In this document: one piece after another, positions 5,124 to 57,593 of the stretch | Numbering within the stretch: the first letter of the stretch is position 1 | Layout of the letters: every line of letters starts with the position of its first letter | Notes under the pieces: generated by a model | Seen by the model: only the letters and a program-made list of their open reading frames with translations | Database searches by the model: none | What the model was told of the DNA's origin: nothing | Origin: an uncultured bacterium | Lineage (GTDB): Bacteria; Patescibacteriota; Andersenbacteria; UBA10190; CAIZMI01 | Length of the DNA: 64,000 bases | Direction: 5' to 3' | Assembly (NCBI GenBank): GCA_903934015.1 | Contig: CAIZMI010000044.1 | Span: forward strand, 5,027 to 69,026 | Made by a program: the position numbers and the translations under genes

Positions 5124-6554
5124 ATGGACAGATATTCAATTACAACTCCAATTTACTACGCTAATGGCAAACCCCACATTGGCCACGCCTATACGACCGT
5201 TGCTTCCGATGTTTTAGCGCGCTTGAATAAACAACTAGGTAAAGAGGTTTTCTTTTTAACCGGTACTGACGAACATGGCGCCAAGGTTGCCGATACGGCG
5301 GTATCCGTCGGAAAAGTGCCACAAGATTTTGTTGATGAGATTGCAACTAGTTTTAAAGAGTGCTGGCAGAAATTAGACATTGAATATTCTGATTTTATTC
5401 GTACAACAGATAAACGCCACGAAACAGGTGTTATTTTTGCGCTGAAAAAATTAAAAGAAACAGACGTAATTTATGAAAAAACATATACCGGACTATATTG
5501 CACTGGCTGTGAGGCTTTCGTAACCGAAAAGGATTTGGATGAGCAGGGTTTTGAGCCGTTACATCAGAAGAAGCCGGTTGTGGTTGAGGAGAAAAATTGG
5601 TTCTTTAGCTTGGCCAAATTCCTACCGGAAATTAAACAGGCAATCGAGACGGATCGAATCAAGATTACTCCCGTAGAGCGAAAAAACGAGGTTCTTGGGC
5701 TTTTTCAGCAGGGCTTGGAGGATTTCTCTATCTCCCGGTCGAAAGAGCGTCTGAAGTGGGGAATTGAGTTGCCTTTTGATTCTACTCAAGTTGCCTATGT
5801 TTGGGTGGACGCGCTTCTAAACTATATTACTGCCCTTGGTTATGGGTCTGATAACGATGAGTTATTGAAGAAGTTTTGGCCAGCCGATGTTCAGGTAATG
5901 GCGCAAGACATCCTAAAGTTTCACGCAATATATTGGCCGGCAATTTTATTGGCACTAGGTCAAGAATTGCCAAAATCAATTTCGATCCATGGTTTTTTCA
6001 CAATCAATGGGCAAAAGATGAGTAAGAGCTTGGGTAATGTAATTGACCCGGCGGATTTGGTTTTAGAATACGGTTCTGACGCTACAAGGTTTTTGCTGCT
6101 ATCCGCTTTTCCGTTTGGCAATTCGGGCGATATTGATGTCCAAAATTTCCGTGAAAAATATAATAGCATCGCAAACACATTAGGAAACCTGGTGCGTCGC
6201 GCGTTTAATTTGGCAGAAAAATATGGGGTAGTAATTGAAACCGTTCCACCATTGGATAAAAGTGTTTTCAGTGAATCAAGTGTTGAAAATTTAAGGGTTC
6301 TACAAAATGTGCTTGAAACAGCGCGTGAATTAAATGTCGAACTGGACAAGCAGGCGCCATGGAAAGAGGCTGATGAAACGAAGCGCAATGCGATTGTGAA
6401 AAACTCTTTGGAAAAAATTCTTGCACTTGCGCAAATGCTTGCACCGACAATGCCGTCTATTGCGAAAGCGATCCTTGGGGCAGTTGGCTCTGATGGAAAA
6501 ATTACAAATCCGCCGGTATTGTTTCCGAAACAAGACAAGTTTATAGCTAAATAG
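5124..6554 (+). CDS. metG: methionine--tRNA ligase
   Basis: HIGH motif (PHIGHAYT), KMSKS (KMSKSLGN) and a CxxC zinc knuckle. Confidence 0.9.
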   Translation: MDRYSITTPIYYANGKPHIGHAYTTVASDVLARLNKQLGKEVFFLTGTDEHGAKVADTAVSVGKVPQDFVDEIATSFKECWQKLDIEYSDFIRTTDKRHETGVIFALKKLKETDVIYEKTYTGLYCTGCEAFVTEKDLDEQGFEPLHQKKPVVVEEKNWFFSLAKFLPEIKQAIETDRIKITPVERKNEVLGLFQQGLEDFSISRSKERLKWGIELPFDSTQVAYVWVDALLNYITALGYGSDNDELLKKFWPADVQVMAQDILKFHAIYWPAILLALGQELPKSISIHGFFTINGQKMSKSLGNVIDPADLVLEYGSDATRFLLLSAFPFGNSGDIDVQNFREKYNSIANTLGNLVRRAFNLAEKYGVVIETVPPLDKSVFSESSVENLRVLQNVLETARELNVELDKQAPWKEADETKRNAIVKNSLEKILALAQMLAPTMPSIAKAILGAVGSDGKITNPPVLFPKQDKFIAK

Positions 6555-7096: not shown

Positions 7097-7861
7097 TTGA
7101 TCGACGCACACTGTCATCTTGATTTAGAACAATACGACGCTGATCGACCGGAGGTTATTGATCGTGCGAAGCAAGCGGATGTAAATACAATTATTAATCC
7201 CGGCGCTGATTGTTTAGGTTTTGAAAAGCCTGTAAAAATTGCTGAGCAATTTGAAAATGTATATGCGGCGATCGGTGTACATCCGGAAGGAATAAATGAG
7301 ATTACGGAAGGATTTTGGTTGCGTTTTTCGGAATTATTACAGCACCCTAAAGTGGTGGCGATTGGTGAAGTCGGATTAGAAAAAAACGATTGGTTACCAT
7401 CACTGGAAGAACAAATTCCCATTATGCTTCGCTTTATCGATTTGGCATTGGTAAACAATAAGCCGATTATTTTTCACGTGCGCTATGTTCATAAAGAGTT
7501 TCAACAGATAATTCGTGAAAAAAATTTAAAATTCAATGCCGTTATTCATAGTTTTACAGGAACGCTTGAGGAGTCGGAATTCTATTTGGCACAAGGATAT
7601 TATTTAGGAATTGCCGGGATGGTGACGTTTCCAAAAGCGGATGAGTTGCGCGCGGTGGTTAAGGAATTACCGCTTGAACGGTTACTGATTGAAACAGATG
7701 CGCCATTCTTAGCGCCACAAGTGGTGCGGGGAAAGCGTAATGAACCGGCACATGTCGTGGAAATCGCAAAAAAGATTGCGGAAATTAAGGGAATTTCGAT
7801 GGAAGAAGTTTTTCAAACAACAGAAGCAAACACGAGAAAATTATTTGGAATCACTCCATAA
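7097..7861 (+). CDS. tatD: TatD family metal-dependent DNase/hydrolase
   Basis: MIDAHCHLD N-terminus and conserved TatD His/Asp pattern. Confidence 0.85.
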   Translation: MIDAHCHLDLEQYDADRPEVIDRAKQADVNTIINPGADCLGFEKPVKIAEQFENVYAAIGVHPEGINEITEGFWLRFSELLQHPKVVAIGEVGLEKNDWLPSLEEQIPIMLRFIDLALVNNKPIIFHVRYVHKEFQQIIREKNLKFNAVIHSFTGTLEESEFYLAQGYYLGIAGMVTFPKADELRAVVKELPLERLLIETDAPFLAPQVVRGKRNEPAHVVEIAKKIAEIKGISMEEVFQTTEANTRKLFGITP

Positions 7862-7950
7862 TCCCTCCCCACCTCCCTTTGAAAAAAGGGAGGAGTCGAC
7901 GCGAACATTCCCTCCTTTATTCAAAGGAGGGCGAGGGTGGATTTGTCCGG
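7861..7950. repeat. REP-like composite element: copy A (AATCCCTCC-N4-CTCCCTTTGAAAAAAGGGAGGAG) plus inverted variant B (CCCTCCTTTATTCAAAGGAGGG..GGTGGATTT). It fills the whole convergent intergenic gap.
   Basis: Perfect hairpin CTCCCTTT-GAA(A/T)AA-AGGGAG. The same element recurs at 12436-12581 and 33347-33385. Confidence 0.8.
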
Positions 7951-12431: not shown

Positions 12432-12435
12432 GCGT

Positions 12436-12581
12436 TTCCCTCCTTTATTCAAAACGCACACGCATCGGCGGTGTTTCGCTGATGCTCAAAGGGCGGGGGT
12501 GGATTTAGTTTATGGGCCTGTTGTTGCATATTGCCAGAATCCCTCCCCTCCTCCCTTTGAATAAAGGGAGGAGACGCGACG
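12436..12581. repeat. REP-like element B (with a ~37-nt insertion in the loop) plus element A, at the rarA/nagB convergent junction
   Basis: TTCCCTCCTTTATTCAAA...AAAGGGCGGGGGTGGATTT and AATCCCTCCCCTCCTCCCTTTGAATAAAGGGAGGAGACGCGACG. Confidence 0.8.
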
Positions 12582-14230: not shown

Positions 14231-14257
14231 TGGCAATTCATGAATTGCCCCTACGTG
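14231..14257. repeat. palindromic element GGCAATTCATGAATTGCCCCTACGTG (family 2)
   Basis: Perfect 18-nt palindrome. Copies at 17395-17420 and a variant at 24821-24863. Confidence 0.75.
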
Positions 14258-14764: not shown

Positions 14765-14865
14765 GCTGGCTCCTGAAATTGGGTAATACGAAAACAGTAA
14801 CGGAGAATTATGTCAAATTTTTATCTTCTTGTCAACTGTGGCTAAATAGCGTTAAGATTTTCATT

Positions 14866-17340
14866 ATGCAAGATAAAAAATACCTACCCCGCGAGATAGA
14901 ACCACGCGCGCAGGCGCTTTGGGAAAAATTAGGACTTTATCAGGCTGACTCATCAGAGTCATCCCCGACCGGGATCGGGGATCCCAAAAAAGATCTATAC
15001 GTTTTAGATATGTTCCCTTATCCCTCGGGCGAAGGGCTTCATGTCGGTCACGTCGAGGGTTACACAGCAACGGATATTTACTCACGCTATAAGCGAATGC
15101 GAGGTTTTAATGTTTTGCATCCGATGGGTTGGGATGCTTTTGGTTTGCCCGCCGAAAATACGGCCATAAAATTAAAAACACATCCGCGAAAATTAGTTGA
15201 AAAAAACGTCGCTCGTTTTAAATCGCAACTAAAACGGATGGGCTTTTCGTATGATTGGTCGCGAGAAATTAACACCACTGATCCGGAATACTACAAATGG
15301 ACACAATGGATTTTTCTAAAGCTTTTTCATCTTGGTTTGGCGTATGAGGCAGTGGTGCCAATTAATTGGTGCCCCTCTTGTAAAACAGGATTGGCCAACG
15401 AAGAAGTGGTGGGTGGTCGCTGCGAGCGCTGTAAAACGGAAGTGATCAAAAAAGACATGCGCCAATGGATGTTAAAAATTACGAAATATTCCGAACGTTT
15501 ATTGGAAGGTCTGGATGGTTTGGATTGGCCGGAAGGGATAAAAGAGCTTCAGAGAAATTGGATAGGCCGTAGTGAAGGGGCGGTGGTTTCATTTAAGGGT
15601 GTAGGGGGTAGGGAGTTGGGTGTAGAGACGACTAATATCGATGTTTACACAACTCGTATCGACACGATATTCTCGGGAACATATGTGATTTTGGCGCCTG
15701 AGCATCCTTTTGTAGAGCAAAATAAAGCATGCATTGAAAATTGGGAAGAAGTGGAAAAATATCGTACGGCGACAAAAAGCGTGGCGGAAATTGAGCGAAC
15801 GGCGAAAGAACGCGTTGCCACCGGTGTGCCATTAAAAGGCGTCAGTGTTATCAATCCGGCGACTGGTGAAACAATGCCGGTTTGGATTGCCGATTTTGTT
15901 TTGGCACATTATGGTACCGGCGCGGTTTTTGCCGATGCGCATGACCAGCGTGATTTTGATTTGGCAAAAAAATATAATATTCCATTAAAGGTTTCAATTC
16001 AGCCGGTTGGTGATACTGATTTTTCGAAAATCGAAAATCTGGAAGAATGTTTTGAAGGCGAAGGTGTCTTGGTTAACTCGGAACAATTTAACGGTCTCAC
16101 TTCCGCCGAGGCGCGTCCAGAAATAATATCTTGGCTTCAGGAAAAAGGATTAGCAAAAGCGGAAACAAATTTTAAATTGCGCGACTGGGTTTTTTCGCGA
16201 CAACGTTATTGGGGAGAGCCAATTCCTGTCATTCATTGTGAAAAATGTGGTGTACAGCCGGTGCCGGAAGATCAGTTGCCGGTTTTGCTTCCGGAAGTTG
16301 AAAATTACGAACCAACCGGTACGGGAGAATCGCCATTAGCCGGCATTGAAAGTTGGGTAAATACAATTTGTCCCAAATGTGGCGCACCCGCCAAACGAGA
16401 AACAAATACAATGCCACAGTGGGCGGGAAGTTGTTGGTATTTCTTGCGTTTTGCGGATCCTGCTGATCAAACACTTGGTTTTGAGTGGCAAAAAATGGAA
16501 CGTTGGTTGCCGGTGGATTTATATGTTGGTGGAGCGGAACATGCGGTGCTACATCTTCTGTATTCCCGTTTTTGGATTAAAGCGCTGTATGACGGTGGAT
16601 ATTTGCCTTTTGAAGAGCCATTTAAAGCATTGCGTAATCAAGGAATGATTCAGGGGCCGGATGGTCAAAAAATGAGCAAATCTCGCGGTAATGTGATTAA
16701 TCCCGATGACGTGGTTGATCAGTATGGTGCGGATGCTTTGCGGTTGTTTGAAATGTTCTTGGGGCCGTTTGAACAAAACAAGCCCTGGGACGATAAGGCG
16801 ATTACGGGAGTATCGAGATTCCTTTATCGAATTTGGCGGATGGAAATGTCTGTCGAGTCGGGTGTAGATGTTAAAAAAGCACTTCATAGATTGATTAAAA
16901 AAGTTAGTGATGATATCGAAAGTATGAAATTCAACACCGCAGTTTCATCAATGATGGAGTTTGTAAACTTGATTGAAAAAACAGGGATTACAAAAACCGA
17001 CTTTGAAAAATTTGTTTTAGTATTGGCTCCGTTTGCGCCTCATTTGGCGGAAGACTTGTGGCAGAACATGCAAACCAAGCCATACAAAAATGGTCAATCG
17101 GCAACGGTGCAAGTTTGGCCGGAATTTGATGTCACACTTCTGCAAGACGAAACAATGAACATTGTCATTCAGGTAAATGGAAAAGTTCGTGGCGCGGTTG
17201 AGGTGGAAAAAAATTTACCTGATGAAGCGGTTCAAAAAATTGTTGCGGAACAAGAAGTTGCAAAGAAATGGTTGGATGGGAAGGAAATCGTGAGGGTGAT
17301 TGTGGTCAGTGGGCGTTTGGTAAATTTTGTGGTGAGATAA
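14866..17340 (+). CDS. leuS: leucine--tRNA ligase
   Basis: [16 protein letters not shown] (HIGH region), [10 protein letters not shown]1 editing domain. Start at ATG 14866; track start 14779 is TTG. Confidence 0.92.
15601..15627 (+). repeat. G/T-rich dispersed element GTAGGGGGTAGGGAGTTGGGTGTAGAG (family 4) inside leuS, in-frame
   Basis: Encodes VGGRELGVE between the WIGRSEG and YTTR segments, ~6 aa longer than E. coli LeuRS. Near-identical copies at 20887-20913, 46690-46711, 57567-57589 (reverse). Confidence 0.7.
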
Positions 17341-17394
17341 AATGGTGATGAAAGAAAAAAATTGTAAAACTATCGGGTACACCCGGTCGTTGTA

Positions 17395-17420
17395 GGGGCA
17401 ATTCATGAATTGCCCCTACG
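17395..17420. repeat. palindromic element GGGGCAATTCATGAATTGCCCCTACG (family 2)
   Basis: Between the leuS stop and the next gene start. Confidence 0.75.
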
Positions 17421-19501: not shown

Positions 19502-20212
19502 ATGCAAGCTGTTCTTCCTATAGCTGGAAAAAGTAGTCGAATGGCCAAAAAGTATCAGGGGCCGAAACAATTATTGCCTGTTCTGGGAAAGCCCTTAGTT
19601 GAGCACATGCTTGAATCGTTGCCGGATGCAATTGATGATCTGGTTTTAGTTGTTGGTGGGCCATATGAAAACGATATTCGCGCATATTTTGGCAGTGAGC
19701 ACAATGGCCGTAAGGTTTCATATGCGCGACAAGAGGCGCCATTGGGTCTTGGACACGCAATTCAGCAAGCGAAGGATTTGGTGAAAGGTCGTTTCATTAT
19801 TACGGCGCCGGATGATATTTACAACAAAGCGGATTTGGAAAAAATGATTGCCGAACCGGACATGGCGGCGCTTACTATGAAGCGTGATGATTGGCAAAAT
19901 TTTGGAGTATTTGTTTTGGATGAACAAGGATACATAATACGCATGGTGGAAAAACCGAAAGAGTTTGTTTCACCGTATGTTTCCGCCGGCGCTTGCTATA
20001 TGCTAGATCAAGAATTTTTTGATGTAACGGTTGCTCCGTCTGCGCGTGGTGAAATTGAATTACCGGATATTGTAAATGCACTTATTAATGAAAGAGGTCG
20101 AAAATGTAAAGCGATTACGACAAGTTTTTGGGTGGCAATAAACGATCCTGATCAGTTGGATGTGGCTAATGATATTATGAAGGCGCGTATTGCTAATCAG
20201 ACGACAAATTAA
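19502..20212 (+). CDS. sugar-1-phosphate nucleotidylyltransferase (NTP_transferase domain), paralog 1
   Basis: MQAVLPIAGKSSRM...GLGHAIQQA. Resembles the GlmU/RmlA N-terminal fold. Stop overlaps the next start (TAATG). Confidence 0.65.
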   Translation: MQAVLPIAGKSSRMAKKYQGPKQLLPVLGKPLVEHMLESLPDAIDDLVLVVGGPYENDIRAYFGSEHNGRKVSYARQEAPLGLGHAIQQAKDLVKGRFIITAPDDIYNKADLEKMIAEPDMAALTMKRDDWQNFGVFVLDEQGYIIRMVEKPKEFVSPYVSAGACYMLDQEFFDVTVAPSARGEIELPDIVNALINERGRKCKAITTSFWVAINDPDQLDVANDIMKARIANQTTN

Positions 20213-20904
20213 TGCAAGCTGTTATTTTGGCGGGGGGATTAGGAAAGCGCTTACGTCCTATTACGGAAGATGTTCCAAAACCATTGGTTCCTGTTTGTGG
20301 CAAACCGGTTGTTGAATATACACTCGAGAATTTGCCGGCAGAAATAATTGAGGTGATTTTTGTGATTGGCTATAAGGGCGAAATGATTAAGGATTTATAC
20401 GGTCATAATGCTTTTGGAAAAAAGATTTCTTATGTCGTGCAGGAGCAACAACTGGGCACAGGGCACGCTGTAAAATGTGCCGCTTCGTTAGTGGATATGC
20501 CTTTTATTTTGCTTTACGGTGACGATATTTACGGAAAAGAAGGATTACAGAAGTTGGTGAAGCGTGAATGGGCTTTATTGGCACGTAGGGTGGAACATCC
20601 GGAAAGATTTGGTGTGCTTAAATTAAACGAAGACGGGACGGTTAGTGATATGGTGGAAAAACCGAAAGAATTTATTTCCGATTTGTCCTGGGTGGGTGGG
20701 GCAAAGTTCCAGGCGGAGTTTATGCAAGTTGAAACACCGCTTTCTCAGCGTGGCGAATATGAAGTTCCCGATATGGTGAATGTCTTGATTAAACAAGGAA
20801 AAAAGTTTTATCCGGAATTGACGGATCTTTGGTTGCCAGTAAATACGCTAGAAGAAGTTGCTGAAGCGGAACGGGTGATTAAGGATGTAGGGGGTAGGCA
20901 GTAG
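20212..20904 (+). CDS. sugar-1-phosphate nucleotidylyltransferase, paralog 2
   Basis: MQAVILAGGLGKRLRPIT (GxGxRL signature). The last 6 codons and the TAG stop lie inside a family-4 repeat. Confidence 0.7.
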   Translation: MQAVILAGGLGKRLRPITEDVPKPLVPVCGKPVVEYTLENLPAEIIEVIFVIGYKGEMIKDLYGHNAFGKKISYVVQEQQLGTGHAVKCAASLVDMPFILLYGDDIYGKEGLQKLVKREWALLARRVEHPERFGVLKLNEDGTVSDMVEKPKEFISDLSWVGGAKFQAEFMQVETPLSQRGEYEVPDMVNVLIKQGKKFYPELTDLWLPVNTLEEVAEAERVIKDVGGRQ

Positions 20905-20913
20905 GGTGTAGAG
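20887..20913 (+). repeat. family-4 element GTAGGGGGTAGGCAGTAGGGTGTAGAG providing the C-terminus (..DVGGRQ) and stop codon of the upstream gene
   Basis: One-nt difference from the leuS copy (GAGTTG vs CAGTAG) creates the in-frame TAG. Confidence 0.7.
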
Positions 20914-20940
20914 ATGTTCCGACGACAACCGATCCCGCGC

Positions 20941-20980
20941 CCACTCCCGAAGTGGACCCGCTGGGCCACTTCGGGAGTGG
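20941..20980. repeat. 15-bp-stem hairpin CCACTCCCGAAGTGG-N10-CCACTTCGGGAGTGG
   Basis: Same arms recur at 56882-56983 with a 71-nt structured insert. Confidence 0.6.
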
Positions 20981-21002
20981 TACGGTTAGTGTGTTGTAAA
21001 TA

Positions 21003-21029
21003 AAAAAACCACCGGTCAGGGTGGTATTA
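21003..21029 (-). terminator. rho-independent terminator (ACCACCCTGACCGGTGGT + T8) for the minus-strand gene ending at 21037
   Basis: 6-bp GC stem followed by a U-run on the minus strand. Confidence 0.6.
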
Positions 21030-21645: not shown

Positions 21646-21668
21646 TGCTCCACCTACGAGGTGGAGCA
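21646..21668. repeat. REP hairpin TGCTCCACCTACGAGGTGGAGCA
   Basis: 6-bp stem CCACCT/AGGTGG with ACG loop. Additional small hairpins lie 20-60 nt upstream. Confidence 0.75.
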
Positions 21669-21696
21669 AAGGTACTCCCTGGTATATGATAATAAT

Positions 21697-22365
21697 ATGC
21701 GGAAAGATATTCTAACTAATAGTGAAGTTTACCATGTGATGAATAAAAGTATCGCTGGATTTAAAATATTTCAGTCAGAGAAGGACTTTTTGCATATGAG
21801 AAACTTGATTAGGTATTACACATCTGCGGGTGTCCGACAAAAGTATTCACAATTTGTACGTGATGTAAATATTCACAAAGATGATATTGAAGAAGAAATC
21901 AATAAACATTTATTGCAGAAAGAAAAAACAGTGCAAATAATTTGTTATTGTTTAATGCCTACGCATTTTCATGTGGTAATAAAACAATTACAGGATCATG
22001 GTATCGAAAAATTCATGTCGGATGTTTCCAATGCATATACACGTCATGTGAATATAAAAATTGAACGAAATGGGCCATTGTGGGTAGGGCGTTTTCAGAG
22101 TGTACTTGTTGATAATGACGATTATCTTACCCATTTAACGCGGTATATCCATCTAAATCCTGTTTCTGCTGGATTAGTTAAAAAAGCCTCTGGTTGGCCC
22201 AATTCTTCTTTTTTGGAGTATGTAAATCGTGATAAGGTGAGGTTTCCGGTGTGCGATTATTCAGGCTTTATTTCTTTTTCGGAAAAACAATACGAAAAAT
22301 TTACAAACGATCACGCGGATTATCAAAAGGAGCTTACACGAATAAAAGCTCTTTGTTTAGAATAA
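21697..22365 (+). CDS. REP-associated tyrosine transposase (RAYT; IS200-like HuH-Y1 family)
   Basis: HuH motif CYCLMPTHFHVVI and Tyr motif RYIHLNPVSAGLVKKASGWPNSSF, which align with E. coli YafM VVLPEHMHCIW / YIYINPVKHGWV..WPFSTF. Start at ATG 21697; track start GTG 21661 lies inside the REP. Confidence 0.8.
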   Translation: MRKDILTNSEVYHVMNKSIAGFKIFQSEKDFLHMRNLIRYYTSAGVRQKYSQFVRDVNIHKDDIEEEINKHLLQKEKTVQIICYCLMPTHFHVVIKQLQDHGIEKFMSDVSNAYTRHVNIKIERNGPLWVGRFQSVLVDNDDYLTHLTRYIHLNPVSAGLVKKASGWPNSSFLEYVNRDKVRFPVCDYSGFISFSEKQYEKFTNDHADYQKELTRIKALCLE

Positions 22366-22382
22366 GGTTTATTACCTTGCAC

Positions 22383-22423
22383 CACCTACGAGGTGGAGCA
22401 AGGTTGCTCCACCTCGTAGGTGG
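22383..22423. repeat. inverted REP doublet CCACCTACGAGGTGG-AGCAAGGTTGCT-CCACCTCGTAGGTGG (BIME-like)
   Basis: 20-2-20 near-perfect palindrome 18 nt after the RAYT stop. Confidence 0.8.
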
Positions 22424-22439
22424 TAAGCAGGTCGTAGAA

Positions 22440-23810: not shown

Positions 23811-23851
23811 AGGGGAAGTGTAGGGAAAAATGGCGAGTGTGACAACCAGCA

Positions 23852-23893
23852 CCGCTCACGGAGCGGAGCAACCTTGCTCCGCTCCGTGAGCGG
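23852..23893. repeat. REP-variant doublet CCGCTCACGGAGCGG-AGCAACCTTGCT-CCGCTCCGTGAGCGG
   Basis: Same architecture as the 22383 doublet (ACG loop, AGCAA-SS-TTGCT spacer) but a different stem. Confidence 0.75.
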
Positions 23894-23924
23894 ACAAAGG
23901 TTCATCGTTCTCAATTTCAGAACT

Positions 23925-24806: not shown

Positions 24807-24820
24807 GCCAACGCGACGCG

Positions 24821-24863
24821 AGGGCAATTCATGTTCGCCAGCTGGCGAATGCCCCTACAGCGT
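24821..24863. repeat. family-2 element variant GGGCAATTCATG[TTCGCCAGCTGGCGAA]TGCCCCTACAGCG with a nested palindrome insertion
   Basis: Shares the GGGCAATTCATG...CCCCTAC flanks with the 14231 and 17395 copies. Confidence 0.6.
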
Positions 24864-30574: not shown

Positions 30575-30653
30575 TGAAACTAATTCTTAATGTTTATCGG
30601 GGATTGCTTCGCCCGCGCACCACAAGGGTGCGGGGCTCGCAAAGACTAATGCT

Positions 30654-33169: not shown

Positions 33170-33346
33170 TTTTTCTTAGCAAAGAAAAACAATCCCCCAT
33201 AGTCGCGTGGTCGCGAAGCGACTTTACGCGACGACGGGGGATGATTTCGCGATATTTTTGTTACACTAAATATAATATAAAGAAGCATTTTGTATCGATA
33301 TATCGATACAAAATTATATTATAGTGGAAATTGGGGTTTATGGACT

Positions 33347-33385
33347 AAATCCCTCCTAACCTCCCTTTGAATAAAGGGAGGAAAC
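33347..33385. repeat. REP-like element A (AAATCCCTCCTAACCTCCCTTTGAATAAAGGGAGGAAAC)
   Basis: Third copy; at the convergent junction downstream of mfd. Confidence 0.75.
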
Positions 33386-33393
33386 ACTCGCGC

Positions 33394-33422
33394 CTCTACG
33401 CCCTACACGCTACCACCTACAC
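33394..33422 (-). repeat. family-4-like element (minus-strand reading GTGTAGGTGGTAGCGTGTAGGGCGTAGAG) supplying the mfd stop codon
   Basis: The first TAG of the element is the mfd stop (33417-33419). Confidence 0.6.
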
Positions 33423-36400
33423 TTTTTTCTTCGCCTTGCCCGTTACGCGCTCTTTTTCGCGAGCTTCTGTTATGAGATGCAATGTGTGTTCTACTTTGCT
33501 TAAATAATCCTGGCCTAGTTCGGTAACAGGTATCGACATTGATGCGCCGGTGAAAGTCCAACGCGGATTATCGGCAATCGCGGTGTAAGCAATTGTTGGC
33601 GTAAGGCCGTCTTGTAAAGTTAATGTAATACGCAAATCTTTTTGCGCGGTCATATCGCGTTTGCTGGCCATAGGGTTTGTGGACGTAACAATGCCATTTA
33701 CATTTGCGATTGCGGCTAATAGTTTCAACTTAAGCACTTGGAAGAAAGTGATTCCCGCTTCCGGAAGTGGTCCATATTGTTCTTCCAGTGCATGGCGAGT
33801 AGAAACTAAATCTTTCATTGAACGAATAGAGCCGGTTCTTGTATAAGCTTGCAAGCGTTCTGCCGTATTTGGAATATATTCTTCCGGCAAATAGGCCTTA
33901 ATCGGCAAATCAATTTGTACGTCTGTAATAGTTTGTTCGGCTTGGCCTTTTCGTAACCGTTCCACTTCTTCATTTAGTAATTCACCAAAAAGATGCACAC
34001 CAACAGCTTTGATTGTGCCATGTTGTTCTTTGCCGAGCAGGTTTCCGGCGCCACGGATTTCTAAATCACGCAAAGCGAGCGTCCAGCCACTGCCCAGTTC
34101 TACTGCTTCCAAAAGTGCCGTTAAGCGTTTGCGGGCTTCAAACGGCAAGCGTCCTTGGTGGTACAAGAAATAGGCGAAGGCTTGTTTGTTTCCACGACCA
34201 ACGCGACCCCGTAACTGGTATAAATCCGACAAACCAAAAGACGGTGAATCAAAAACAACCAGCGTATTAACATTTGGCAAATCAATACCGTTTTGAATAA
34301 TTGTTGAGCAAACAAGAATATCGGCTTTTTTGGTATCAAATAATTCCATCACTTCCATTAGTTTTTGTTCATGCATTTGACCGTGACCCACCACAACGCG
34401 TGCTTTTGGCATGATTTTTCGAATGCGTTCGGCGGCCGCTTCGATAGTTTCTACGCGATTCCATAAAACGTAGGCTTGACCCCCACGTTCTAATTCTGTT
34501 TGTAGTGCTTTTTTAACCAGTTCATCGTTTTCACGCGTTACTTTGGTGATGACAGGTTGGCGACCACCCGGTGGTGTAGCAATTACGGAAAGAGAACGTA
34601 GTCCTGAAAGAGCCATATTTAGTGTACGTGGAATTGGTGTAGCGGAGAGGGAAAGAACATCAACGCTTGCGCGCATTCTGCGCAAACTTTCTTTTTGCTC
34701 GACACCGAATTTTTGTTCTTCGTCGATGATCATTAAACCTAGAGATTTGAATTTTACATCTTCTGATAAAAGGCGATGGGTGCCAATAACAATATCAACT
34801 TCGCCTGTTACTAATTTTCGTACCACCTCATTTTGCTCAGAAGCTGTCTGGAAGCGAGAAATTAAGGCACAACGGGAATTAAACGGTTTCAGGCGTTCCT
34901 GGAAGGTGTCGAAATGCTGTTGTGCTAAAAGTGTTGTGGGAGACAGGACGGCTACTTGGCGACCAAAGTTCACTGACTTAAAAGCAGCACGGATGGCAAC
35001 TTCTGTTTTGCCAAAACCAACATCACCGCAAACCAAACGATCCATTGGTTGGGCGCGTTCCATGTCCTTGGTTACTTCGCGGATAGCCGTTTCTTGGTCG
35101 TGTGTTTCGTCGTATGGGAAAGAATCAGCAAGCGACCGTTCTGCTTCCGTTTCCGGTGGAAAAGCGGTTCCGGATTGTGTTTCGCGCGCGGCATAAAGCT
35201 GTAACAATTCTTTGGCTAGATCGGCTGTTTCTTGGCGGATTTCTTTTGTTGTTGATTCCCATTCGCTACCGCCCAAGCGATGAATAACCGGATTAGCGGC
35301 CCCAATGTAGGCGGTGACTTTGTAGGACATTTCCACTGGAACAAAAAGTTTGTCGGAGGCGGCATATTCCAAAACTAGGTAGTCGCGAGCGGAATCGCGC
35401 AATTCTTTTCGCTCAATTCCACGGAATCGCGCAATGCCATGGTCGCGATGAACAACATAACCACCGGCGGAAAAACGGCGCGAGTAAGCCATGCCACTAT
35501 CCCATGAAAGCGGGTCTTCTTCGGCGGATTCACCAATGTCGGCATCAGTGAATATAGCGAAGGCGTCTTTAGTGTTAATAAAACCACGGGCATCCGCCGC
35601 TGTTTCGGCGGGAATGATTTCCAGGTTTTCGTTTTGCGGTAAAGTGACGCGCGTTGCTTCTGGGCGTGCAGTCAATATGATTACTTTATTTTTTTTGAGT
35701 GTTTCTGAAATGAGTAGTTTGAATTTTTCCATATCCCCGCCACATGGGGCCGGCTCGCGGATTTCGGAAATGCCGGAAAATGGTTGCAGGAGCATGTCCG
35801 GTTTTGTTGTGTTTCCAATTAGCGCTCCTTCTTCGGCGACGATGTATGCTGATTCGATGATTTTTTGGAAGTTTACCGGCAATGTTGGCGGAAGGGCCAG
35901 GGGAAAAATGTTTCTTGTTCGTCCGTCGGTTTGAGAAATTCTCTCGAATATTTTATTTGTATCGTTATTATTGCTATTGCGAGGCGCGAGAGATTTGATG
36001 TGGTCAATTTCATTTCCTAAAAACTCAATGCGCATTGGAGCGTCAGAATGAAATGGAAAGATGTCTACTATTCCGCCATGGTGCGAAAACGTGGCCGGTT
36101 CTTCGGAAACTCGCTCTTCCGTGTAGCCAAAGTTTATTAATTTTTCAATAAGAATTGTGGGAGAGAGAGTCTGTTTTTCTTTTAGTTGTAAAACTCCAAG
36201 GTCGGAGGTGAGTTTTGGAGACGGTTGTTGCAGTTCTTTTTGTGTTGCTAAAATCAAACGCGGGTGATTGTTTTTCAATGCCGTAATTGCTTGCCAGTAG
36301 GCCCTGAGTCGAGGAGTGGGAATATCACCGGATCTTTCTTGGGGTAGGAGGACGGGTAAGATTGTTAACGGATAATTGGTGGGATACTCTGTTTCACCAA

Positions 36401-36623
36401 TTTTTACTTGTTTCCAAAAAGCGATTGAACGAGAAATGCCCGGTAATGTAATAGTGGATCTTTCTACGAGTACGACAACAATTGGTCTACCCGATTCTGA
36501 AATCGGAAGACCTGCTAAAAATAGGGGAAGGATGCTCTCTGGAAGAGTCGGCGCTTCGATTTGTTTATCTTTTTCGACGGCGCTCCAAAGGTCCTGTAAT
36601 ACAGAGATTCGCGGGATATTCAT
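33417..36623 (-). CDS. mfd: transcription-repair coupling factor
   Basis: 1068 aa. UvrB-homology N-terminus, RNAP-interacting domain, superfamily-2 translocase motifs (GFGKTEVA, DEEQKFG), TRG motif. Confidence 0.92.
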   Translation of the reverse strand: MNIPRISVLQDLWSAVEKDKQIEAPTLPESILPLFLAGLPISESGRPIVVVLVERSTITLPGISRSIAFWKQVKIGETEYPTNYPLTILPVLLPQERSGDIPTPRLRAYWQAITALKNNHPRLILATQKELQQPSPKLTSDLGVLQLKEKQTLSPTILIEKLINFGYTEERVSEEPATFSHHGGIVDIFPFHSDAPMRIEFLGNEIDHIKSLAPRNSNNNDTNKIFERISQTDGRTRNIFPLALPPTLPVNFQKIIESAYIVAEEGALIGNTTKPDMLLQPFSGISEIREPAPCGGDMEKFKLLISETLKKNKVIILTARPEATRVTLPQNENLEIIPAETAADARGFINTKDAFAIFTDADIGESAEEDPLSWDSGMAYSRRFSAGGYVVHRDHGIARFRGIERKELRDSARDYLVLEYAASDKLFVPVEMSYKVTAYIGAANPVIHRLGGSEWESTTKEIRQETADLAKELLQLYAARETQSGTAFPPETEAERSLADSFPYDETHDQETAIREVTKDMERAQPMDRLVCGDVGFGKTEVAIRAAFKSVNFGRQVAVLSPTTLLAQQHFDTFQERLKPFNSRCALISRFQTASEQNEVVRKLVTGEVDIVIGTHRLLSEDVKFKSLGLMIIDEEQKFGVEQKESLRRMRASVDVLSLSATPIPRTLNMALSGLRSLSVIATPPGGRQPVITKVTRENDELVKKALQTELERGGQAYVLWNRVETIEAAAERIRKIMPKARVVVGHGQMHEQKLMEVMELFDTKKADILVCSTIIQNGIDLPNVNTLVVFDSPSFGLSDLYQLRGRVGRGNKQAFAYFLYHQGRLPFEARKRLTALLEAVELGSGWTLALRDLEIRGAGNLLGKEQHGTIKAVGVHLFGELLNEEVERLRKGQAEQTITDVQIDLPIKAYLPEEYIPNTAERLQAYTRTGSIRSMKDLVSTRHALEEQYGPLPEAGITFFQVLKLKLLAAIANVNGIVTSTNPMASKRDMTAQKDLRITLTLQDGLTPTIAYTAIADNPRWTFTGASMSIPVTELGQDYLSKVEHTLHLITEAREKERVTGKAKKKV

Positions 36624-36728: not shown

Positions 36729-37283
36729 TCAATTGGTGAAAAATTTATGTTTTGCGTCTAAAAATATTTTATCTAATTCCACTATTTCATTATTTGAAAA
36801 CTTCTCCAACACAAATATGTCGGTTGTCTGTGGCGCCGGTACCGGACCGATGCCGATTCGAAGGCGCCAAAAGTTGGATGTTCCAAGGCAGTCGATAATT
36901 GATTGCACGCCTTTGTGGCCGGCAGACGAAATTTCTTTTTGTAATCTAATTTCCCCTAAATTAATGTCCTTATCGTCGTGTAAGACGAGGAGTTGTTCTG
37001 GTTGTAATTGTTCTTTTTCTATAAGATAGGCAACACTTGTTCCGGATTCGTTCATGAAAGTGTGCGGGAAGACTAGAAGGTGGGGGGTGGGGTGTAGGTG
37101 GTAGGTGCCTCGTGATATCATTGCGTTCGAGTATTTGTCATGTTTGAATTCAGGGAAAATCCATTGTTTTTGCAGACAATCTAATAATAATGCACCTGCG
37201 TTGTGGCGAGTATTTTTGTATTCGTCTCCCGGATTTCCCAGTCCAACGATTATTCGAATGTCATCCAGAATAAATTCGGACAT
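36729..37283 (-). CDS. pth: peptidyl-tRNA hydrolase
   Basis: IVGLGNPGDEYKNTRHNAG N-terminus, FMNESG, HNG. Contains ~9 extra residues (TYHLHPTPH) encoded by a family-4-like repeat. Confidence 0.85.
   Translation of the reverse strand: MSEFILDDIRIIVGLGNPGDEYKNTRHNAGALLLDCLQKQWIFPEFKHDKYSNAMISRGTYHLHPTPHLLVFPHTFMNESGTSVAYLIEKEQLQPEQLLVLHDDKDINLGEIRLQKEISSAGHKGVQSIIDCLGTSNFWRLRIGIGPVPAPQTTDIFVLEKFSNNEIVELDKIFLDAKHKFFTN
37080..37110 (-). repeat. family-4-like G/T-rich element inside pth, in-frame (GTGGGGGGTGGGGTGTAGGTGGTAGGTGCC on + strand)
   Basis: Encodes GTYHLHPTPH, absent from the E. coli Pth alignment at this position. Confidence 0.5.
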
Positions 37284-37293
37284 TGTAAAAAAA

Positions 37294-38868
37294 TTACTGG
37301 CTGGTTGTTTGTGAGCTATCCGCAAAATCGGTACCGAGGAGGATAAGAAAATCAGCTTTCGAGGAGTTTTCGGAACTTGGAAGAGAAACGGTACTGCCGA
37401 TACCGAGTGTACTTAAAATAGTTTTTAGGCTTTCCGGTTTTTTATTGGCGGTGAGATCGATGATGACTGTAGACGTGCGATCTCTTTTTGCCGTGTTTCC
37501 CACGGTTTGGACGATAAAGTTTGCTGTTTTTAGCTTAGCCGATGTTCGCGAAGCCAGTCCCGTGATATTTGTGCCGTTACGAATTTCTACAGTTGGTTTT
37601 TCGGTTTTTAAATTTGCTGTATCAGGGGAAGTTGATGGAGTTGGTTTTGCGGAAGGTGTTACTGAAGGTGGCGCAGTTGGTTTCTGGGAGGAAATTGGTG
37701 TAGCTGGGGCATCTGTTTTTGTGGCTGAAAAGATATTGCTGACAAATTCTTTGATTTGCGAATAATCTTCGGCACCGGCGCGTGGTCGAATAATTGAAGC
37801 GGGAACTCCATCTAGAATTTCCGTGCCACCAGCAAGAAGACCATTTGTTCCTGTGGACAAGACGGCCGTATTAATGTTGTCTTTTGGAATTACGCGTGCC
37901 ATCTCAAAAACTTTTTTTACTTCCCAGAGGTTAAAATTAGTGGCGACGTTATCGCCAAAAGCATCGATGATTCCTGTAACCGCACGCACGTCAAAAGCCG
38001 TATTGGCTGAAAAGATTTTTTCACGCATTGCTAAAAGCAGGTGTTGTTGACGCGCGGCGCGAGCAAAATCGCCACCCTCCGGGCCGTCAACATAGCGTGC
38101 GCGAACATAAGAAAGCGCGCGGTCTCCACTCATTAACTCTGTTCCGGCAGGGAATGAAATTTTGTGCCAATAATCATAAAAAGAAACAGGAATGGTAACT
38201 TCTACGCCCCCAATTTTATCGATAACTTGCTTAAAAGCGGTGAAATCAACGCGTGCATAGTAGTGGATAGAGAGACCGGTAATTTCTTCTACTTTTTGAC
38301 CGAGAGCGATAATGCCTTCGCCCTTTTTCACATTTTCTTTATAGGCGTTGATGGCGTTAATTTTTGTGAAGGATGACGAACCGGGAAGGCGAACAAATAA
38401 ATCGCGTGGAATGGAAAGCAGTGCCACCTTTTTTTCTTGTGGACGGATCATTGCCACCATGATGGTATCAGTGAGATTTTCGCCTTCATGGCCCTTTCCG
38501 CCGATGGCGGCGAGTAAAACATTGATTTGTCCATCTTTTTCTCCTATTAGCATGCGATCACCTGGGATAAAGAGATCTACTAATTGCGCGATAATTGAGC
38601 GATCTTTGTTTAATACATTGCCACCGACCTTTAAGATTTTTGCAGAAAATAACCCGCCACAAAGGATGAGTAGTGTTAAAATTACGTAAATAGTGCGACG
38701 AATACCGCGACCTTTTTTTCGCTTTCCGGAGGGGGCCTTTATGGTCCCGCTTCCTTTGCCACCACCTTTTGAAGTGCGGATAGGAACAGAAGCGCCGTTA
38801 TCGGCTGATCTTATCTCGCGCAAAATATTTGCGCGTTCGTCTGACGAAAGAGATACACGAGAACTCAT
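37294..38868 (-). CDS. LytR-CpsA-Psr (LCP) family cell-envelope phosphotransferase with S/T/P-rich C-terminal extension
   Basis: N-terminal TM, LCP core (..AIGGKGHEGENLTDTIMVAMI..LLSIPRDL..), LytR_C-like tail. Confidence 0.8.
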   Translation of the reverse strand: MSSRVSLSSDERANILREIRSADNGASVPIRTSKGGGKGSGTIKAPSGKRKKGRGIRRTIYVILTLLILCGGLFSAKILKVGGNVLNKDRSIIAQLVDLFIPGDRMLIGEKDGQINVLLAAIGGKGHEGENLTDTIMVAMIRPQEKKVALLSIPRDLFVRLPGSSSFTKINAINAYKENVKKGEGIIALGQKVEEITGLSIHYYARVDFTAFKQVIDKIGGVEVTIPVSFYDYWHKISFPAGTELMSGDRALSYVRARYVDGPEGGDFARAARQQHLLLAMREKIFSANTAFDVRAVTGIIDAFGDNVATNFNLWEVKKVFEMARVIPKDNINTAVLSTGTNGLLAGGTEILDGVPASIIRPRAGAEDYSQIKEFVSNIFSATKTDAPATPISSQKPTAPPSVTPSAKPTPSTSPDTANLKTEKPTVEIRNGTNITGLASRTSAKLKTANFIVQTVGNTAKRDRTSTVIIDLTANKKPESLKTILSTLGIGSTVSLPSSENSSKADFLILLGTDFADSSQTTSQ

Positions 38869-38965
38869 GTAGGTATAAGCATATTACTTTGGCGAGTGAG
38901 AAGCAAATTGAAACTTGACCGTCGTCTTTGCGAGGCGCTGCAGTGCCGAAGCAATCTGACGGTGT

Positions 38966-39041
38966 AAAATTTCTAATTTCTAATACCTAATGAAATTCCA
39001 AAAGTCCAATTCGATGTTTTAAAATTATTACATTTCATTAG
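38966..39041. repeat. AT-rich inverted-repeat element (TTCTAATTTCTAATACCTAATGAAAT ... ATTTCATTAG)
   Basis: Related copy at 54418-54520. Both lie in promoter-proximal intergenic DNA. Confidence 0.45.
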
Positions 39042-45439: not shown

Positions 45440-46684
45440 ATGTCAAAAGATGAAATATTGGTAGGTTTGGATGTCGGAACAACAACAACAAGGGTTGTTG
45501 TTGCGGTTCGATCTCCTGAAAATGAAAAACCGTCTGTTCTTGGAATTGGTGTTGTTGCCTCGTCTGGAATTCAGAAAGGTGTTGTGACTGACGTTGAAGA
45601 AACAATCCAATCTGTAAGCAAGGCATTGGATCAAGCAGAACAGATGGCCGGAATTCCGATTGAGCGTGCCACTGTCAGTATTGGTGGGGCGCATATTTCC
45701 TCGCAAAACAGTCGTGGTGTAATTGCTGTTTCAAGAGCGGATGGTGAAATAAGCGAAGATGATATCACGCGGGTAGTAAACGCTGCGCAAGCTATTTCAA
45801 TACCATCCAATCGTGAAATACTTCATGTCGTACCGCAACAGTTTGTTGTTGATAGTCAGGATGGAATAACCGATCCGTTGGGGATGACCGGTGTTAGATT
45901 GGAAGTGGACGCTCATATTATTGAAGGTTCCGCGCCGTTTATTAAAAATTTGACGAAGTGTGTTTATCAAGCGGGTGTTACGGTGGGGGATTTGGTGTAC
46001 GCTCCGTTATCTGCCGCCAAGGCGGTTCTTTCCAAGAGACAGCGCGAATTGGGTGTAATTCTAATCGACTTAGGCGGTGGTACAACCAATATCGCTGTTT
46101 TTGAAGAAAATCGTTTGCTTCAGACGGCAACTTTACCGATTGGTTCAATGCACATTACAAATGATATCGCAATTGGTCTTCGTTCATCTATTGATGTGGC
46201 GGAAAAAATTAAAGTAGAACTTGGTACGGCACTGCCGGATGAAGTAAAGAAAACACAGGTAATAAACTTAAAGCATATGGATGAACAAGAAGAAGAAACG
46301 GAAATACCACGACGTCACGTTGCGGAAATTATTGAGGCGCGGTTGTCTGAAATATTTGCAATGGTAAATAAAGAATTAAAATCAGTTCAGCGGTCCGGGC
46401 TTTTGCCGGCCGGAGTTGTGCTTACCGGTGGTGGGTCAAAAATGCACGGTGTTGTTGAATTGGCAAAAAAAGAATTGCGATTACCTGCGCAGTTGGGTTA
46501 CCCGCAACCATTGCCTGGAATTGTTGATGAAATTAATGATCCGGCATGGGCAACAGCGATGGGATTAATCTTTCATACTATGGATAATCAACAAGCAAAG
46601 CCCCGTTCATCAATGCCAAATCTTTCTTCGGTTGGTCCAACGGTAACAAAAATTCGGGGCTGGTTTCGGTCGTTAATGCCTTGA
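45440..46684 (+). CDS. ftsA: cell division protein FtsA
   Basis: Actin-fold. N-terminus ILVGLDVGTTTTRVVVA; DLGGGTTNIAVF. Confidence 0.9.
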   Translation: MSKDEILVGLDVGTTTTRVVVAVRSPENEKPSVLGIGVVASSGIQKGVVTDVEETIQSVSKALDQAEQMAGIPIERATVSIGGAHISSQNSRGVIAVSRADGEISEDDITRVVNAAQAISIPSNREILHVVPQQFVVDSQDGITDPLGMTGVRLEVDAHIIEGSAPFIKNLTKCVYQAGVTVGDLVYAPLSAAKAVLSKRQRELGVILIDLGGGTTNIAVFEENRLLQTATLPIGSMHITNDIAIGLRSSIDVAEKIKVELGTALPDEVKKTQVINLKHMDEQEEETEIPRRHVAEIIEARLSEIFAMVNKELKSVQRSGLLPAGVVLTGGGSKMHGVVELAKKELRLPAQLGYPQPLPGIVDEINDPAWATAMGLIFHTMDNQQAKPRSSMPNLSSVGPTVTKIRGWFRSLMP

Positions 46685-46689
46685 TGAGA

Positions 46690-46711
46690 GGGTGTAGGGA
46701 GTTGGGTGTAG
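46690..46711 (+). repeat. family-4 element fragment GGGTGTAGGGAGTTGGGTGTAG just after the ftsA stop
   Basis: Matches the 3' part of the leuS copy. Confidence 0.6.
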
Positions 46712-46858
46712 TTTTCTAAAGATAATACCGAAATTACGAATATAATTATATGTCAATCGTCAATGTCCATTGATGATTTTTAGTTATGGGAGGTTCAAAA
46801 GTTGTTTATAATATTTCTAGAATTTTACACCCTAAACGCTAACCCCCATATCCTTCCA

Positions 46859-53807: not shown

Positions 53808-54031
53808 GTCGGGACGCCGGGAATCCCGTTTTCCCCGTCGCGTGGCCTCGCCGTTTATTAAGCCGGGAATCGGCCTCGCCTCTCGGAGTACTGATGTCCT
53901 CCTCGGGCTGGCCACCGCCTCCTGTCCGTTTGCGGACAGTCCGGCGTCCGATTCCCGGGTATTCCGAGTCACAAAAAATAGGCCACAGGCCTATTTTTCA
54001 TGACAGTCGGGACGCCGGGAATCGGACCCGG
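53808..54031. repeat. GC-rich structured noncoding block with direct repeats TCGGGACGCCGGGAATC (x2), CCGGGAATCGG (x3 direct, x1 inverted) and hairpins (CTGTCCG-TTTG-CGGACAG; AATAGGCC-ACA-GGCCTATT)
   Basis: Seen directly; no convincing ORF. GC looks far above the genome background. Confidence 0.5.
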
Positions 54032-54417
54032 TCTACATGCACCCCATGCATGCGTACTACCGGTATACTACGTCCCGGTTGTTTCAATTATGCGCAAAAA
54101 AACGCGAGCCGTATATACAGCATACCGCATACTGAATACATCATTCTATATACTACTTCGTCATTTCTTTTGTCGCGATCTTGATACAAGAGGCGCACAA
54201 AAGCATCCGGATACCGGCGATTTTGCATTTCTGCAAGTTTGGGTATTGACGGCGTTTGGAAGCGATATTTGAGTGGCTTCTGCTAAAAGAAGACTGTGTT
54301 TTCTTTTCGCAACGCTGGCAAACTTTCATCATAGGGGTGGGGGATGAGGATTAAATACTGAAGGAATTTAACATATCATTTACATTCGAGCAAGAGTGAG
54401 CTGTGTTGTGGGAATGT

Positions 54418-54520
54418 CTAGTATCTAATTCCTAATTTCTAATGAAATGCACAAATGTCAATATAGTGTGTTGAATATTGGAAATTTCATTAGAAATTAG
54501 ATATTAGTAATTAGAAATTT
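54418..54520. repeat. AT-rich ~95-nt imperfect palindrome (CTAATTCCTAATTTCTAATGAAAT ... ATTTCATTAGAAATTAG...)
   Basis: Related to the 38966-39041 element. Confidence 0.45.
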
Positions 54521-56731: not shown

Positions 56732-56743
56732 GTGAAGCAAACC

Positions 56744-56768: not shown

Positions 56769-56847
56769 CGTGAGAATACTCAATGGATTTCGGATTTCTG
56801 CTTGTAATAGAATGTTTTTTAATTTTTTACTGTTACGTTCGTACGCG

Positions 56848-57560: not shown

Positions 57561-57593
57561 CGACACTCTACACCCTACTGCCTACTGCCTCGC
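57561..57593 (-). repeat. family-4 element (reverse: GCAGTAGGCAGTAGGGTGTAGAGTGTCG) ~95 nt upstream of rpsL
   Basis: Matches the 20887 copy. Confidence 0.6.

Follow-up and report, generated by a model that had tools for sequence, protein, structure and literature searches.

GTAGGGN heptamer arrays and their overlap with gene ends in a 64-kb stretch of an uncultured patescibacterial genome

Background

Repeats made of a few tandem units of seven nucleotides have been described in several groups of bacteria, and here we surveyed a family of this kind, the GTAGGGN arrays, which are interspersed in a 64,000-nucleotide stretch of DNA from an uncultured bacterium (GTDB lineage Bacteria; Patescibacteriota; Andersenbacteria; UBA10190; CAIZMI01). 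This stretch is called the window throughout, covers positions 5,027 to 69,026 of the forward strand of contig CAIZMI010000044.1 (GenBank assembly GCA_903934015.1), and gives the coordinates used below. The survey started from the 3′ end of a nucleotidyltransferase (NT) gene, the stop codon of which lies inside one of the arrays.

Two known groups resemble the arrays in a more general way. The short tandemly repeated repetitive (STRR) sequences of cyanobacteria, with units such as CCCCAGT, are reportedly tandem heptanucleotide arrays dispersed in intergenic DNA. The likeness to this type is a general one and is also seen in relatives of the window genome, with their GGGGACA and GGGTACA arrays; the unit is different, the STRR arrays are said to be usually longer, and we know of no description of their use as stop codons. 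Rickettsia palindromic elements are small repeats that are reportedly tolerated in frame in essential genes and are palindromic, with a length of 100-150 bp. In-frame tolerance within genes is shared by the copies in leuS and pth, whereas the present repeats are non-palindromic heptamer arrays of about 30 nt.

The closest class is that of Rehm et al. (PLoS One 2015, PMC4692102), with the heptamers GGGAATC in Xanthomonas and GGGGA(C/T)T in Nostoc PCC 7120. These repeats mostly have four units and are intergenic in 89-93% of the cases (two Xanthomonas genomes); in Xanthomonas they lie on average 28 nt from the 5′ neighbour as against 160 nt from the 3′ neighbour, and are placed 0-50 bp past stop codons on the coding strand, overlaps included. 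Inverted pairs are frequent, intragenic copies are rare and the repeats vary among close relatives; they were not linked to insertion sequences or other mobile elements, and their function is given as unknown (PMC4692102). The second class is formed by the TAACTGA direct repeats of marine Beggiatoaceae, cyanobacteria and Bacteroidetes, which have 2-6 units (MacGregor, Front Microbiol 2015, PMC4679880). Forward copies of TAACTGA stop all the frames, so that within open reading frames (ORFs) they are present only at the ends, and 13 sets overlap the upstream stop codon; they are mainly situated just upstream of start codons and were proposed to be translation regulators (PMC4679880).

The window family unites these two descriptions with a new unit, while the class itself is already known. 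It shares with the repeats of Rehm et al. the period of 7, a G tract in each unit, about four units per array (3-5 in the window; 3-4 is the mode among the GTDB matches listed), a position nearer to the 5′ neighbour (5/5 in the window, 26/30 elsewhere), inverted pairs, rare intragenic copies and variation of length and sequence among close relatives (mfd 3′ end and pth site, compared with loci L131 and L133). It differs from them because GTAGGGN has a TAG and stops all frames, whereas GGGAATC and GGGGAYT are without stops; the G3 tracts are often broken, with a canonical G-quadruplex motif in one of the six clear window copies, and the host is a small-genome uncultured bacterium, the homologs of whose NT include Patescibacteria-group sequences. 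All-frame stops in the forward orientation, a translatable reverse orientation, a scattered phylogeny and the overlap with the upstream stop codon (NT, mfd, L131, L137, L138 and further loci) are features in common with the TAACTGA repeats. These are, however, AT-rich and carry TAA and TGA where the unit GTAGGGN carries TAG, and the genes converge where the NT and mfd copies lie, leaving none downstream that could be regulated. A literature search for the literal repeat strings gave no relevant paper.

We consider it probable that the arrays represent a dispersed simple-sequence repeat of about four G-rich heptamers, for which the stops at gene ends are a by-product and which changes locally by slippage or gene conversion.

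Distribution of the arrays in the window

Each element consists of about four G-rich 7-nt units, GTAGGGN, arranged in tandem (3-5 units per window copy). Six clear copies and one degenerate copy were found, four in plus and three in minus orientation (Table 1). GT.G was unchanged in 21/21 units when the six clear copies were aligned and tallied by hand, and Tandem Repeats Finder reported a period of 7 with 4.3 copies at both 15596-15625 and 20882-20911. The pattern GTAG-N3-GTAG-N3-GTAG has 5 occurrences in the window vs 0.00 in 100 shuffles, and GTAG-N3-GTAG has 10 vs 0.46 expected, every one of them within array copies; chance or low complexity as the source of the arrays is excluded by these shuffles. 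The arrays have no match in Rfam, the scan of the window at the gathering threshold having given only a tRNA.

As 7 equals 1 modulo 3 and every unit has a TAG, three consecutive units are enough for a TAG in each frame of the G-rich strand. Six-frame translation was done for every copy: the NT copy has a stop in each of the three sense frames, and the C-rich strand of the arrays has no stops, all antisense frames being open. This agrees with the original prediction, according to which the element carries TAG in several frames and the copy in leuS (14779-17340) is open only in the frame of leuS itself. The reason is that the third unit of the leuS copy is GTTGGG instead of GTAGGG. The same variant is present in the non-coding copy after ftsA, so its origin by selection once the array had entered leuS need not be assumed. 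The copy in leuS and that of the NT match at 92% across 36 nt, which take in the short flanks TTAAGGRT and GTAGAGA.

The copies are situated at or just after a sense stop codon (NT, mfd, ftsA), in non-coding DNA upstream of rpsL and ftsZ, inside leuS and antisense inside pth, and every one of these positions is compatible with the all-frame-stop rule, the leuS copy being without an in-frame TAG. A sense stop is abutted or overlapped by three of the five intergenic copies, against a probability of 0.106 per copy if placed at random in permissible DNA (P(>=3/5) about 0.01), and all five are nearer to their 5′ neighbour. The predicted clustering of copies at gene 3′ ends is thereby seen in the window, and likewise in the unrelated genomes described below.

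A canonical G-quadruplex motif (G3+N1-7, four times) occurs once in the whole window, in the leuS copy. ViennaRNA with G-quadruplex terms, applied to the six clear copies, predicted a quadruplex for the leuS and pth copies only and none for the NT, mfd, ftsA and rpsL-upstream copies; a G-quadruplex as a common property lacks support in most window copies. An FtsK-orienting motif (GGGNAGGG) or a Chi-like polar motif was dropped because the copies have mixed orientations.

Table 1. Positions of the arrays, the stop codons taken from them and the neighbouring hairpin in the window
Feature	Position	Strand	Details
Heptamer array at NT 3′ end	20879..20914	+	TTAAGGAT; units GTAGGGG GTAGGCA GTAGGGT GTAGAGA; encodes (I)KDVGGRQ + stop
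TAG stop codon of NT gene	20902..20904	+	third TAG of the array
Bidirectional terminator-like hairpin	21008..21025		about 100 nt downstream of the NT array
Array at mfd 3′ end	33393..33422	-	GTGTAGGTGGTAGCGTGTAGGGCGTAGAGG as read on the minus strand
TAG stop codon of mfd	33417..33419	-	first TAG of its array
In-frame sense copy inside leuS	15593..15628	+	variable loop between the NWIGRSEG and TTRxDT motifs
Degenerate antisense copy inside pth (36729-37325, minus strand)	37075..37107	+	translated TYHLHPTPHLL; three antisense frames open
Copy after ftsA	46686..46711	+	GAGGGTGTAGGGAGTTGGGTGTAG; begins 2 nt past the ftsA stop (TGA 46682-46684)
Degenerate inverted partner of the ftsA copy	46826..46847	-	GGGGGTTAGCGTTTAGGGTGTA on the minus strand; about 34 nt upstream of the ftsZ ORF
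Intergenic copy, strand opposite rpsL	57565..57590	-	just upstream of promoter-like TTGACT...TAAAGT (read by eye)

Ends of the nucleotidyltransferase and mfd genes

The NT ORF (20212-20904) has the terminal codons GAT GTA GGG GGT AGG CAG TAG, i.e. D V G G R Q and stop, and this stop is the third of the four TAG in GATGTAGGGGGTAGGCAGTAGGGTGTAGAG, so codons and coordinates agree with the prediction that the gene ends inside an array copy. The NTP_transferase domain (Pfam) spans residues 3-221 of the 230-residue protein. The 3′ region was identical base for base in six independently assembled contigs, and an assembly artefact as the source of the array is therefore ruled out. In 120 NT homologs the sequence is conserved through EEVAEAE[KR] and is followed by unrelated tails of about 5-20 residues with hypervariable length; a VIKDVGGRQ-like tail is present in 0/120. 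The closest homolog (94% identical) has the C-terminus ...AEAEKYLSRL, and an array at the NT end is lacking in the syntenic relatives L007, L008 and L010. As judged from these comparisons, the last ~7 residues of the NT (KDVGGRQ) and its stop are repeat-derived. The tail sits in a naturally hypervariable stretch, as the tails of the orthologs indicate, and therefore functional remodelling is not implied.

The NT array is probably within the presumed 3′ untranslated region, upstream of the intrinsic terminator-like hairpin listed in Table 1, and since it stands between the stop and this hairpin it is probably transcribed. A CACTCCCGAAGTGG-type hairpin is also present downstream of the array at 20949-20985.

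The mfd ORF (33417-36623, minus strand), in which all TRCF domains were detected, has the terminal codons AAG AAA AAA GTG TAG. Its stop is the first TAG of the array GTGTAGGTGGTAGCGTGTAGGGCGTAGAGG, which again agrees with what had been predicted. Change in place was compared at this gene end between relatives with mfd more than 90% identical (same 90% cluster). The tail in the window is GKAKKKV-stop, with an array of GTAGGTG-type units, the first TAG of which is the stop. In L131, of the same cluster, it is GKAKKRV-stop with a different array, GGGTGTAGAGTGTAGGGGGTAG, whose first TAG is likewise the stop, and in L133 GKAKKK is closed by the gene's own TAA and a GGGTACA-type array, GGGTACAGGGATCAGGGTACAGG, comes directly after. 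Without any array, the gene ends in GKAKYKKKQ-stop in L008 and in GRKK-stop in L010. Read from these tails, the repeat adds one valine and a stop to an otherwise native K-rich mfd tail.

The original prediction had further suggested that the termini of both genes were remodelled, and had proposed to compare them with orthologs. This part stood for the NT, whose tail of about 7 residues is encoded by the repeat and unique among the homologs, but hardly for mfd, whose tail is native bar one V and where the GKAKKK-stop and GKAKYKKKQ-stop of relatives come close to overturning the suggestion.

Two hairpin-forming repeats are also found around these gene ends. The first (TTCCCTCCTTTATTCAAAGGAGGG...GGGTGGATTT) is present at gene 3′ ends at 7856-7944, 12432-12576 and 33344-33386, of which the last adjoins the mfd array, and its copy at about 12437-12513 is apparently interrupted by an insertion of about 34 nt. 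The second, dispersed one (CGTCTTTGCGAG...GAAGCAATC) lies in the window at about 30595-30650 and at 38920-38965 and also in L007, L010 and L133; in relatives it fills the spacers 3′ of NT and mfd, places that in the window are occupied by heptamer arrays.

Comparison of orthologous sites

The loop of LeuRS from NWIGxSxG to TTRxDT has 22 residues in the window vs a mode of 16 in 109 homologs. The leuS homologs found were at most 63% identical, and the site was compared by loop length and with L008 only, against which the window has 13 residues in place of 7 and not a clean insertion. In pth, the site of the single antisense array of the window is taken in L131 and L133 by an inverted, in-frame pair of GGGGACA arrays, which gives 21 additional amino acids. 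The ftsA gene of the relative L134 has the same C-terminus as that of the window, SLMP-stop, without an array.

At both mfd and pth the arrays of close relatives thus differ, which speaks for change in place. Taken on these sequence comparisons, the orthologous sites appear to change rapidly in place, and the simple presence or absence of one inserted element is not seen. A clean empty-site comparison was not obtained, the intergenic DNA of L007, L008, L010 and L134 being unalignable with the window beyond the coding sequence. Neither terminal inverted repeats nor target duplications nor a hairpin were found in the window copies, whose fold energies of 0 to -6 kcal/mol lie inside the range of shuffles and which show no self-complementarity. 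Insertion as the cause of the altered gene ends, as originally proposed, is not borne out by these features, nor by the 13-for-7 replacement in leuS and the differing arrays of relatives.

The LeuRS loop itself ranges from 14 to 29 residues across homologs (P0131-P0250; window 15555-15660), and some of the long loops are of low complexity, e.g. FQIPSTKFQTNSKFQAPNSKRF and ISNFQF, which suggests that other small repeats may also land there. The insert in pth of the relatives (L131 7012-7100, L133 714-802) encodes the 21 residues GDRGQGTGRERVANASATSTL by inverted GGGGACA/GGGTACA arrays.

Occurrence and position in other genomes

The GTDB genomes, one per species, were scanned with the pattern GTAGGNAGTNGGGTGTAG, and at least 119 loci in many phyla were found; about 280 chance matches to the bare 16 specified bases are estimated. 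Among the matches listed, 86 of 125 arrays reach at least four units, for which chance cannot account, and the mode is 3-4 units. The record titles of these matches name Cyanobacteria, Bacteroidota, Acidobacteriota, Gemmatimonadota, Planctomycetota, Nitrospirota, Chloroflexota, Deinococcota, Proteobacteria and several candidate-phyla-radiation lineages. Their units are mostly GTAGGG with intact G3, and position 3 of the unit is A in 698/770 units across phyla. A stricter pattern gave nine loci in the JGI metagenomes. The first TAG of the array terminates an ORF of 195 aa in L137 and one of 151 aa in L138; the array follows the stop after 4 nt in L144 and after about 14 nt in L140, L142 and L143. 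A 25-nt core is identical in unrelated metagenome contigs, the core of the leuS and NT copies recurring in L137 and L140.

For the position test, loci of at most 55% GC were pooled, simple ORF calls were used as gene calls and the 5′-vs-3′ symmetry served as the control. It replaced an earlier ORF-based enrichment test, which was uninformative owing to long spurious ORFs in GC-rich loci. Of the independent intergenic arrays 26/30 are nearer to the 5′ neighbour, with median distances of 20 nt on this side vs 170 nt on the other (binomial p=6e-5). In 13 of the 30 the array starts at most 15 nt from this neighbour, which in 11 of those is a sense ORF whose stop the array abuts or overlaps; in 8/30 a sense ORF takes its stop codon from the array. 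A Pfam scan of six upstream ORFs showed all of them to be genuine genes (HsdS, SecD, HlyD-type adaptor, histidine kinase, ParA-like, polyketide cyclase), and in four of these (SecD, histidine kinase, ParA-like, cyclase) the domain ends 2-4 residues short of the array TAG. Tails of the form VGSRE-stop in other loci parallel the DVGGRQ-stop of the window.

Viral contigs have triple units of GTAGGG in 113 stretches, of GTTGGG in 67 and of GATGGG in 40; GTAGGG is common there yet not unique among G-rich heptamers, since GATGGG and GTTGGG triples occur too. The Saprospiraceae genome JALWSS01 (e.g. L045, L052, L053 and L064 among the GTDB loci L012-L130) has very many long GTAGGGN arrays of up to 32 units, which lie inside a larger repeat (...AACTCTGTGGTTTTAAAG-array-GGTTTGGGGCGCTAGC...).

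Other repeats and features of the window

AT-rich heptamer arrays (AATTTCT / ATTAGAA) are present at 38968-38991 and 54413-54520 and form long inverted repeats within 54413-54519 and between sites 15 kb apart. The region 56289-57652 is 1.36 kb without a convincing gene and has a 47-nt repeat twice after terminator-like hairpins (56755-56801 and 57457-57503); it also holds CACTCCCGAAGTGG-type hairpins and has no Rfam match. At 63322-64000 a 138-nt tandem repeat with at least 4.7 copies, about 80% identical, continues past the end of the window and probably encodes a 46-residue repeat. A tRNA-Pro(GGG) was predicted by ARAGORN at 54006-54077 on the minus strand, inside the ORF 54000-54272, and was not reported by Rfam at the gathering threshold.

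Discussion

In the explanation which we favour, the all-frame stops would expose the arrays to selection that limits where they can persist, and the observed distribution would be the outcome. Where an array comes to stand beside a gene end, its TAG may become the working stop and its first codons the last residues of the protein, the switch to the array TAG taking place through loss of the spacer or of the original stop. The number and sequence of the units would shift locally via replication slippage or gene conversion. As the TAG of an array would be taken over when it adjoins a gene end, the NT and mfd termini would be a by-product and not a designed feature, and remodelling of termini is probably minor and incidental.

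Several points weigh against this explanation. Slippage alone predicts homogeneous units, yet the leuS and NT copies share unit order and flanks, and a multi-unit sequence common to distant copies and to the unrelated contigs L137 and L140 implies that some copy-and-paste process would be needed. The known G-rich heptamers without stops have an equal position bias (PMC4692102), so selection against stops cannot fully explain the location. G-quadruplex potential is the distinguishing mark of the known class, and among the window copies only that in leuS has the canonical motif. In addition, the window sample comprises seven copies, and the genes at the other loci were called as simple ORFs.

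We hold it to be unlikely, though with a chance that deserves notice, that each array is a miniature mobile element, or the solo end of an element similar to miniature inverted-repeat transposable elements (MITEs), which a transposase inserts preferentially beside stops so that the termini are actively remodelled. This explanation would account for the multi-unit order and short flanks common to copies and for the identical 25-nt core in unrelated metagenome contigs. A MITE-like element exists in the unrelated contig L190 (IMG/VR), where (GTAGGGT)3 arrays are the inverted termini (TGT...ACA) of an element of about 107 bp with four copies in 8 kb, and inverted array pairs are also seen in the ftsA-ftsZ spacer of the window and in the pth insert of L131 and L133. 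The window copies, however, have neither terminal inverted repeats nor a target-site duplication, on which ground a MITE identity for single arrays was rejected, and their self-complementarity (0 to -6 kcal/mol) is lacking too. The leuS copy swaps 7 residues for 13, which is no clean insertion, the orthologous sites of close relatives hold different arrays and not one element that is present or absent, and Rehm et al. saw no link of their repeats to mobile elements (PMC4692102). The L190 copies lie at 632-737, 2809-2914, 5922-6029 and 7792-7899 with a conserved 65-nt core, and the element is also present in L183, L203 and L210.

It is rather improbable, in our estimate, that the arrays are a selected 3′-end module, which would act as an all-frame translational backstop, possibly together with a G-rich RNA or DNA structure or a site for protein binding, with an effect on termination or on the stability of the mRNA. 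TAG is the best-conserved part of the unit (GT.G in the 21/21 window units; A at position 3 in 698/770), arrays are flush with sense stop codons in many phyla, and the NT array, between its stop and the terminator-like hairpin, is probably transcribed. The phage contig L168 (IMG/VR) has stop-bearing heptamer arrays in three successive spacers of co-directional putative structural ORFs. Yet a single stop codon suffices for such a purpose, copies are also situated upstream of genes on the opposite strand and within genes, and close relatives have no array, nor an obvious substitute for it, at the NT and ftsA ends. The G-quadruplex potential is missing in 4/6 clear copies, and stop-free heptamers are positioned alike. 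In L168 the spacers at 1170-1265, 1855-1925 and 2255-2345 have the units GTAGGGA, CGAATAG and GTTTTCA/CTGAAAA, the first unit being the stop of the upstream ORF in 2/3, and the motif CGCGGGAGCGCAGCGAC closes 2/3 spacers ahead of the next start.

A wider form of the idea, which we put forward as speculation with a chance smaller again, would take the GTAGGGN arrays as a cross-phylum 3′-end module that is horizontally spread or enzymatically generated and combines all-frame TAG with a G-rich tract. It would actively capture gene termini, trim the proteins to the last essential residues and append tails of the VG[GS]R[QE] type, and perhaps influence termination or mRNA fate; the stop-bearing heptamers (GTAGGGN, TAACTGA, CGAATAG, ACTGAAA) would then be one functional class. 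If true, such a single class would help to explain the dominance of 7-nt repeats in prokaryotic intergenic DNA.

Repetitive extragenic palindromic (REP) elements recognised by REP-associated tyrosine transposases (RAYTs) are said to have a conserved 5′ GTAG. That the arrays are tandem GTAG heads of such elements, made or used by the adjacent transposase (Y1_Tnp, 21661-22365), is very improbable: this gene lies 750 nt downstream of the NT array with palindromic repeats with GTAGGTGG on its flanks, and a REP-like palindrome, GTAGGGGCAATTCATGAATTGCCCCTAC, begins with one heptamer unit, but the arrays have no hairpin, the repeats flanking the transposase are of another sequence family, the transposase of L007 (71% identical) is not accompanied by an array at the NT end, and tblastn of the window transposase against 364 loci (2.98 Mb), more than 200 of which carry arrays from other genomes, matched only the window's own contigs and L007. 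A RAYT/REP origin was accordingly rejected, GTAG being present without a palindrome (the fold is no better than shuffles) and without local co-occurrence.

The Y1_Tnp gene, which is IS200/RAYT-like and stands between the NT and UDP-glucose dehydrogenase genes, is flanked by the palindromic repeats GCTCCACCTACGAGGTGGAGC and a doublet at 22374-22424 (region 21646-22424), and a related palindrome is found at 23851-23901. It is present in L007 and absent from the syntenic L008 and L010, and is therefore a recent acquisition. The perfect palindrome GTAGGGGCAATTCATGAATTGCCCCTAC has three copies (17389-17416, 14232-14254 and about 24820-24856), two of which bracket leuS with 23-nt arms that are 100% complementary and 3137 nt apart; its head GTAGGGG is identical to a single unit of the heptamer arrays, and a similar GTAG-headed palindrome is found after the array in the metagenome locus L137.

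The dispersed simple-sequence repeat, which we prefer as the explanation, has consequences for annotation, as short tails like DVGGRQ, VGSRE or a final V ahead of the TAG may be encoded by a repeat and not be family sequence, and stop codons may move between close strains without functional meaning. The data extend a poorly understood class of heptamers to the new unit GTAGGGN and to small-genome uncultured bacteria. The bias of this class to the 5′ neighbour and its stop codon holds for GTAGGGN in many phyla, and it is now a well-defined and testable pattern.

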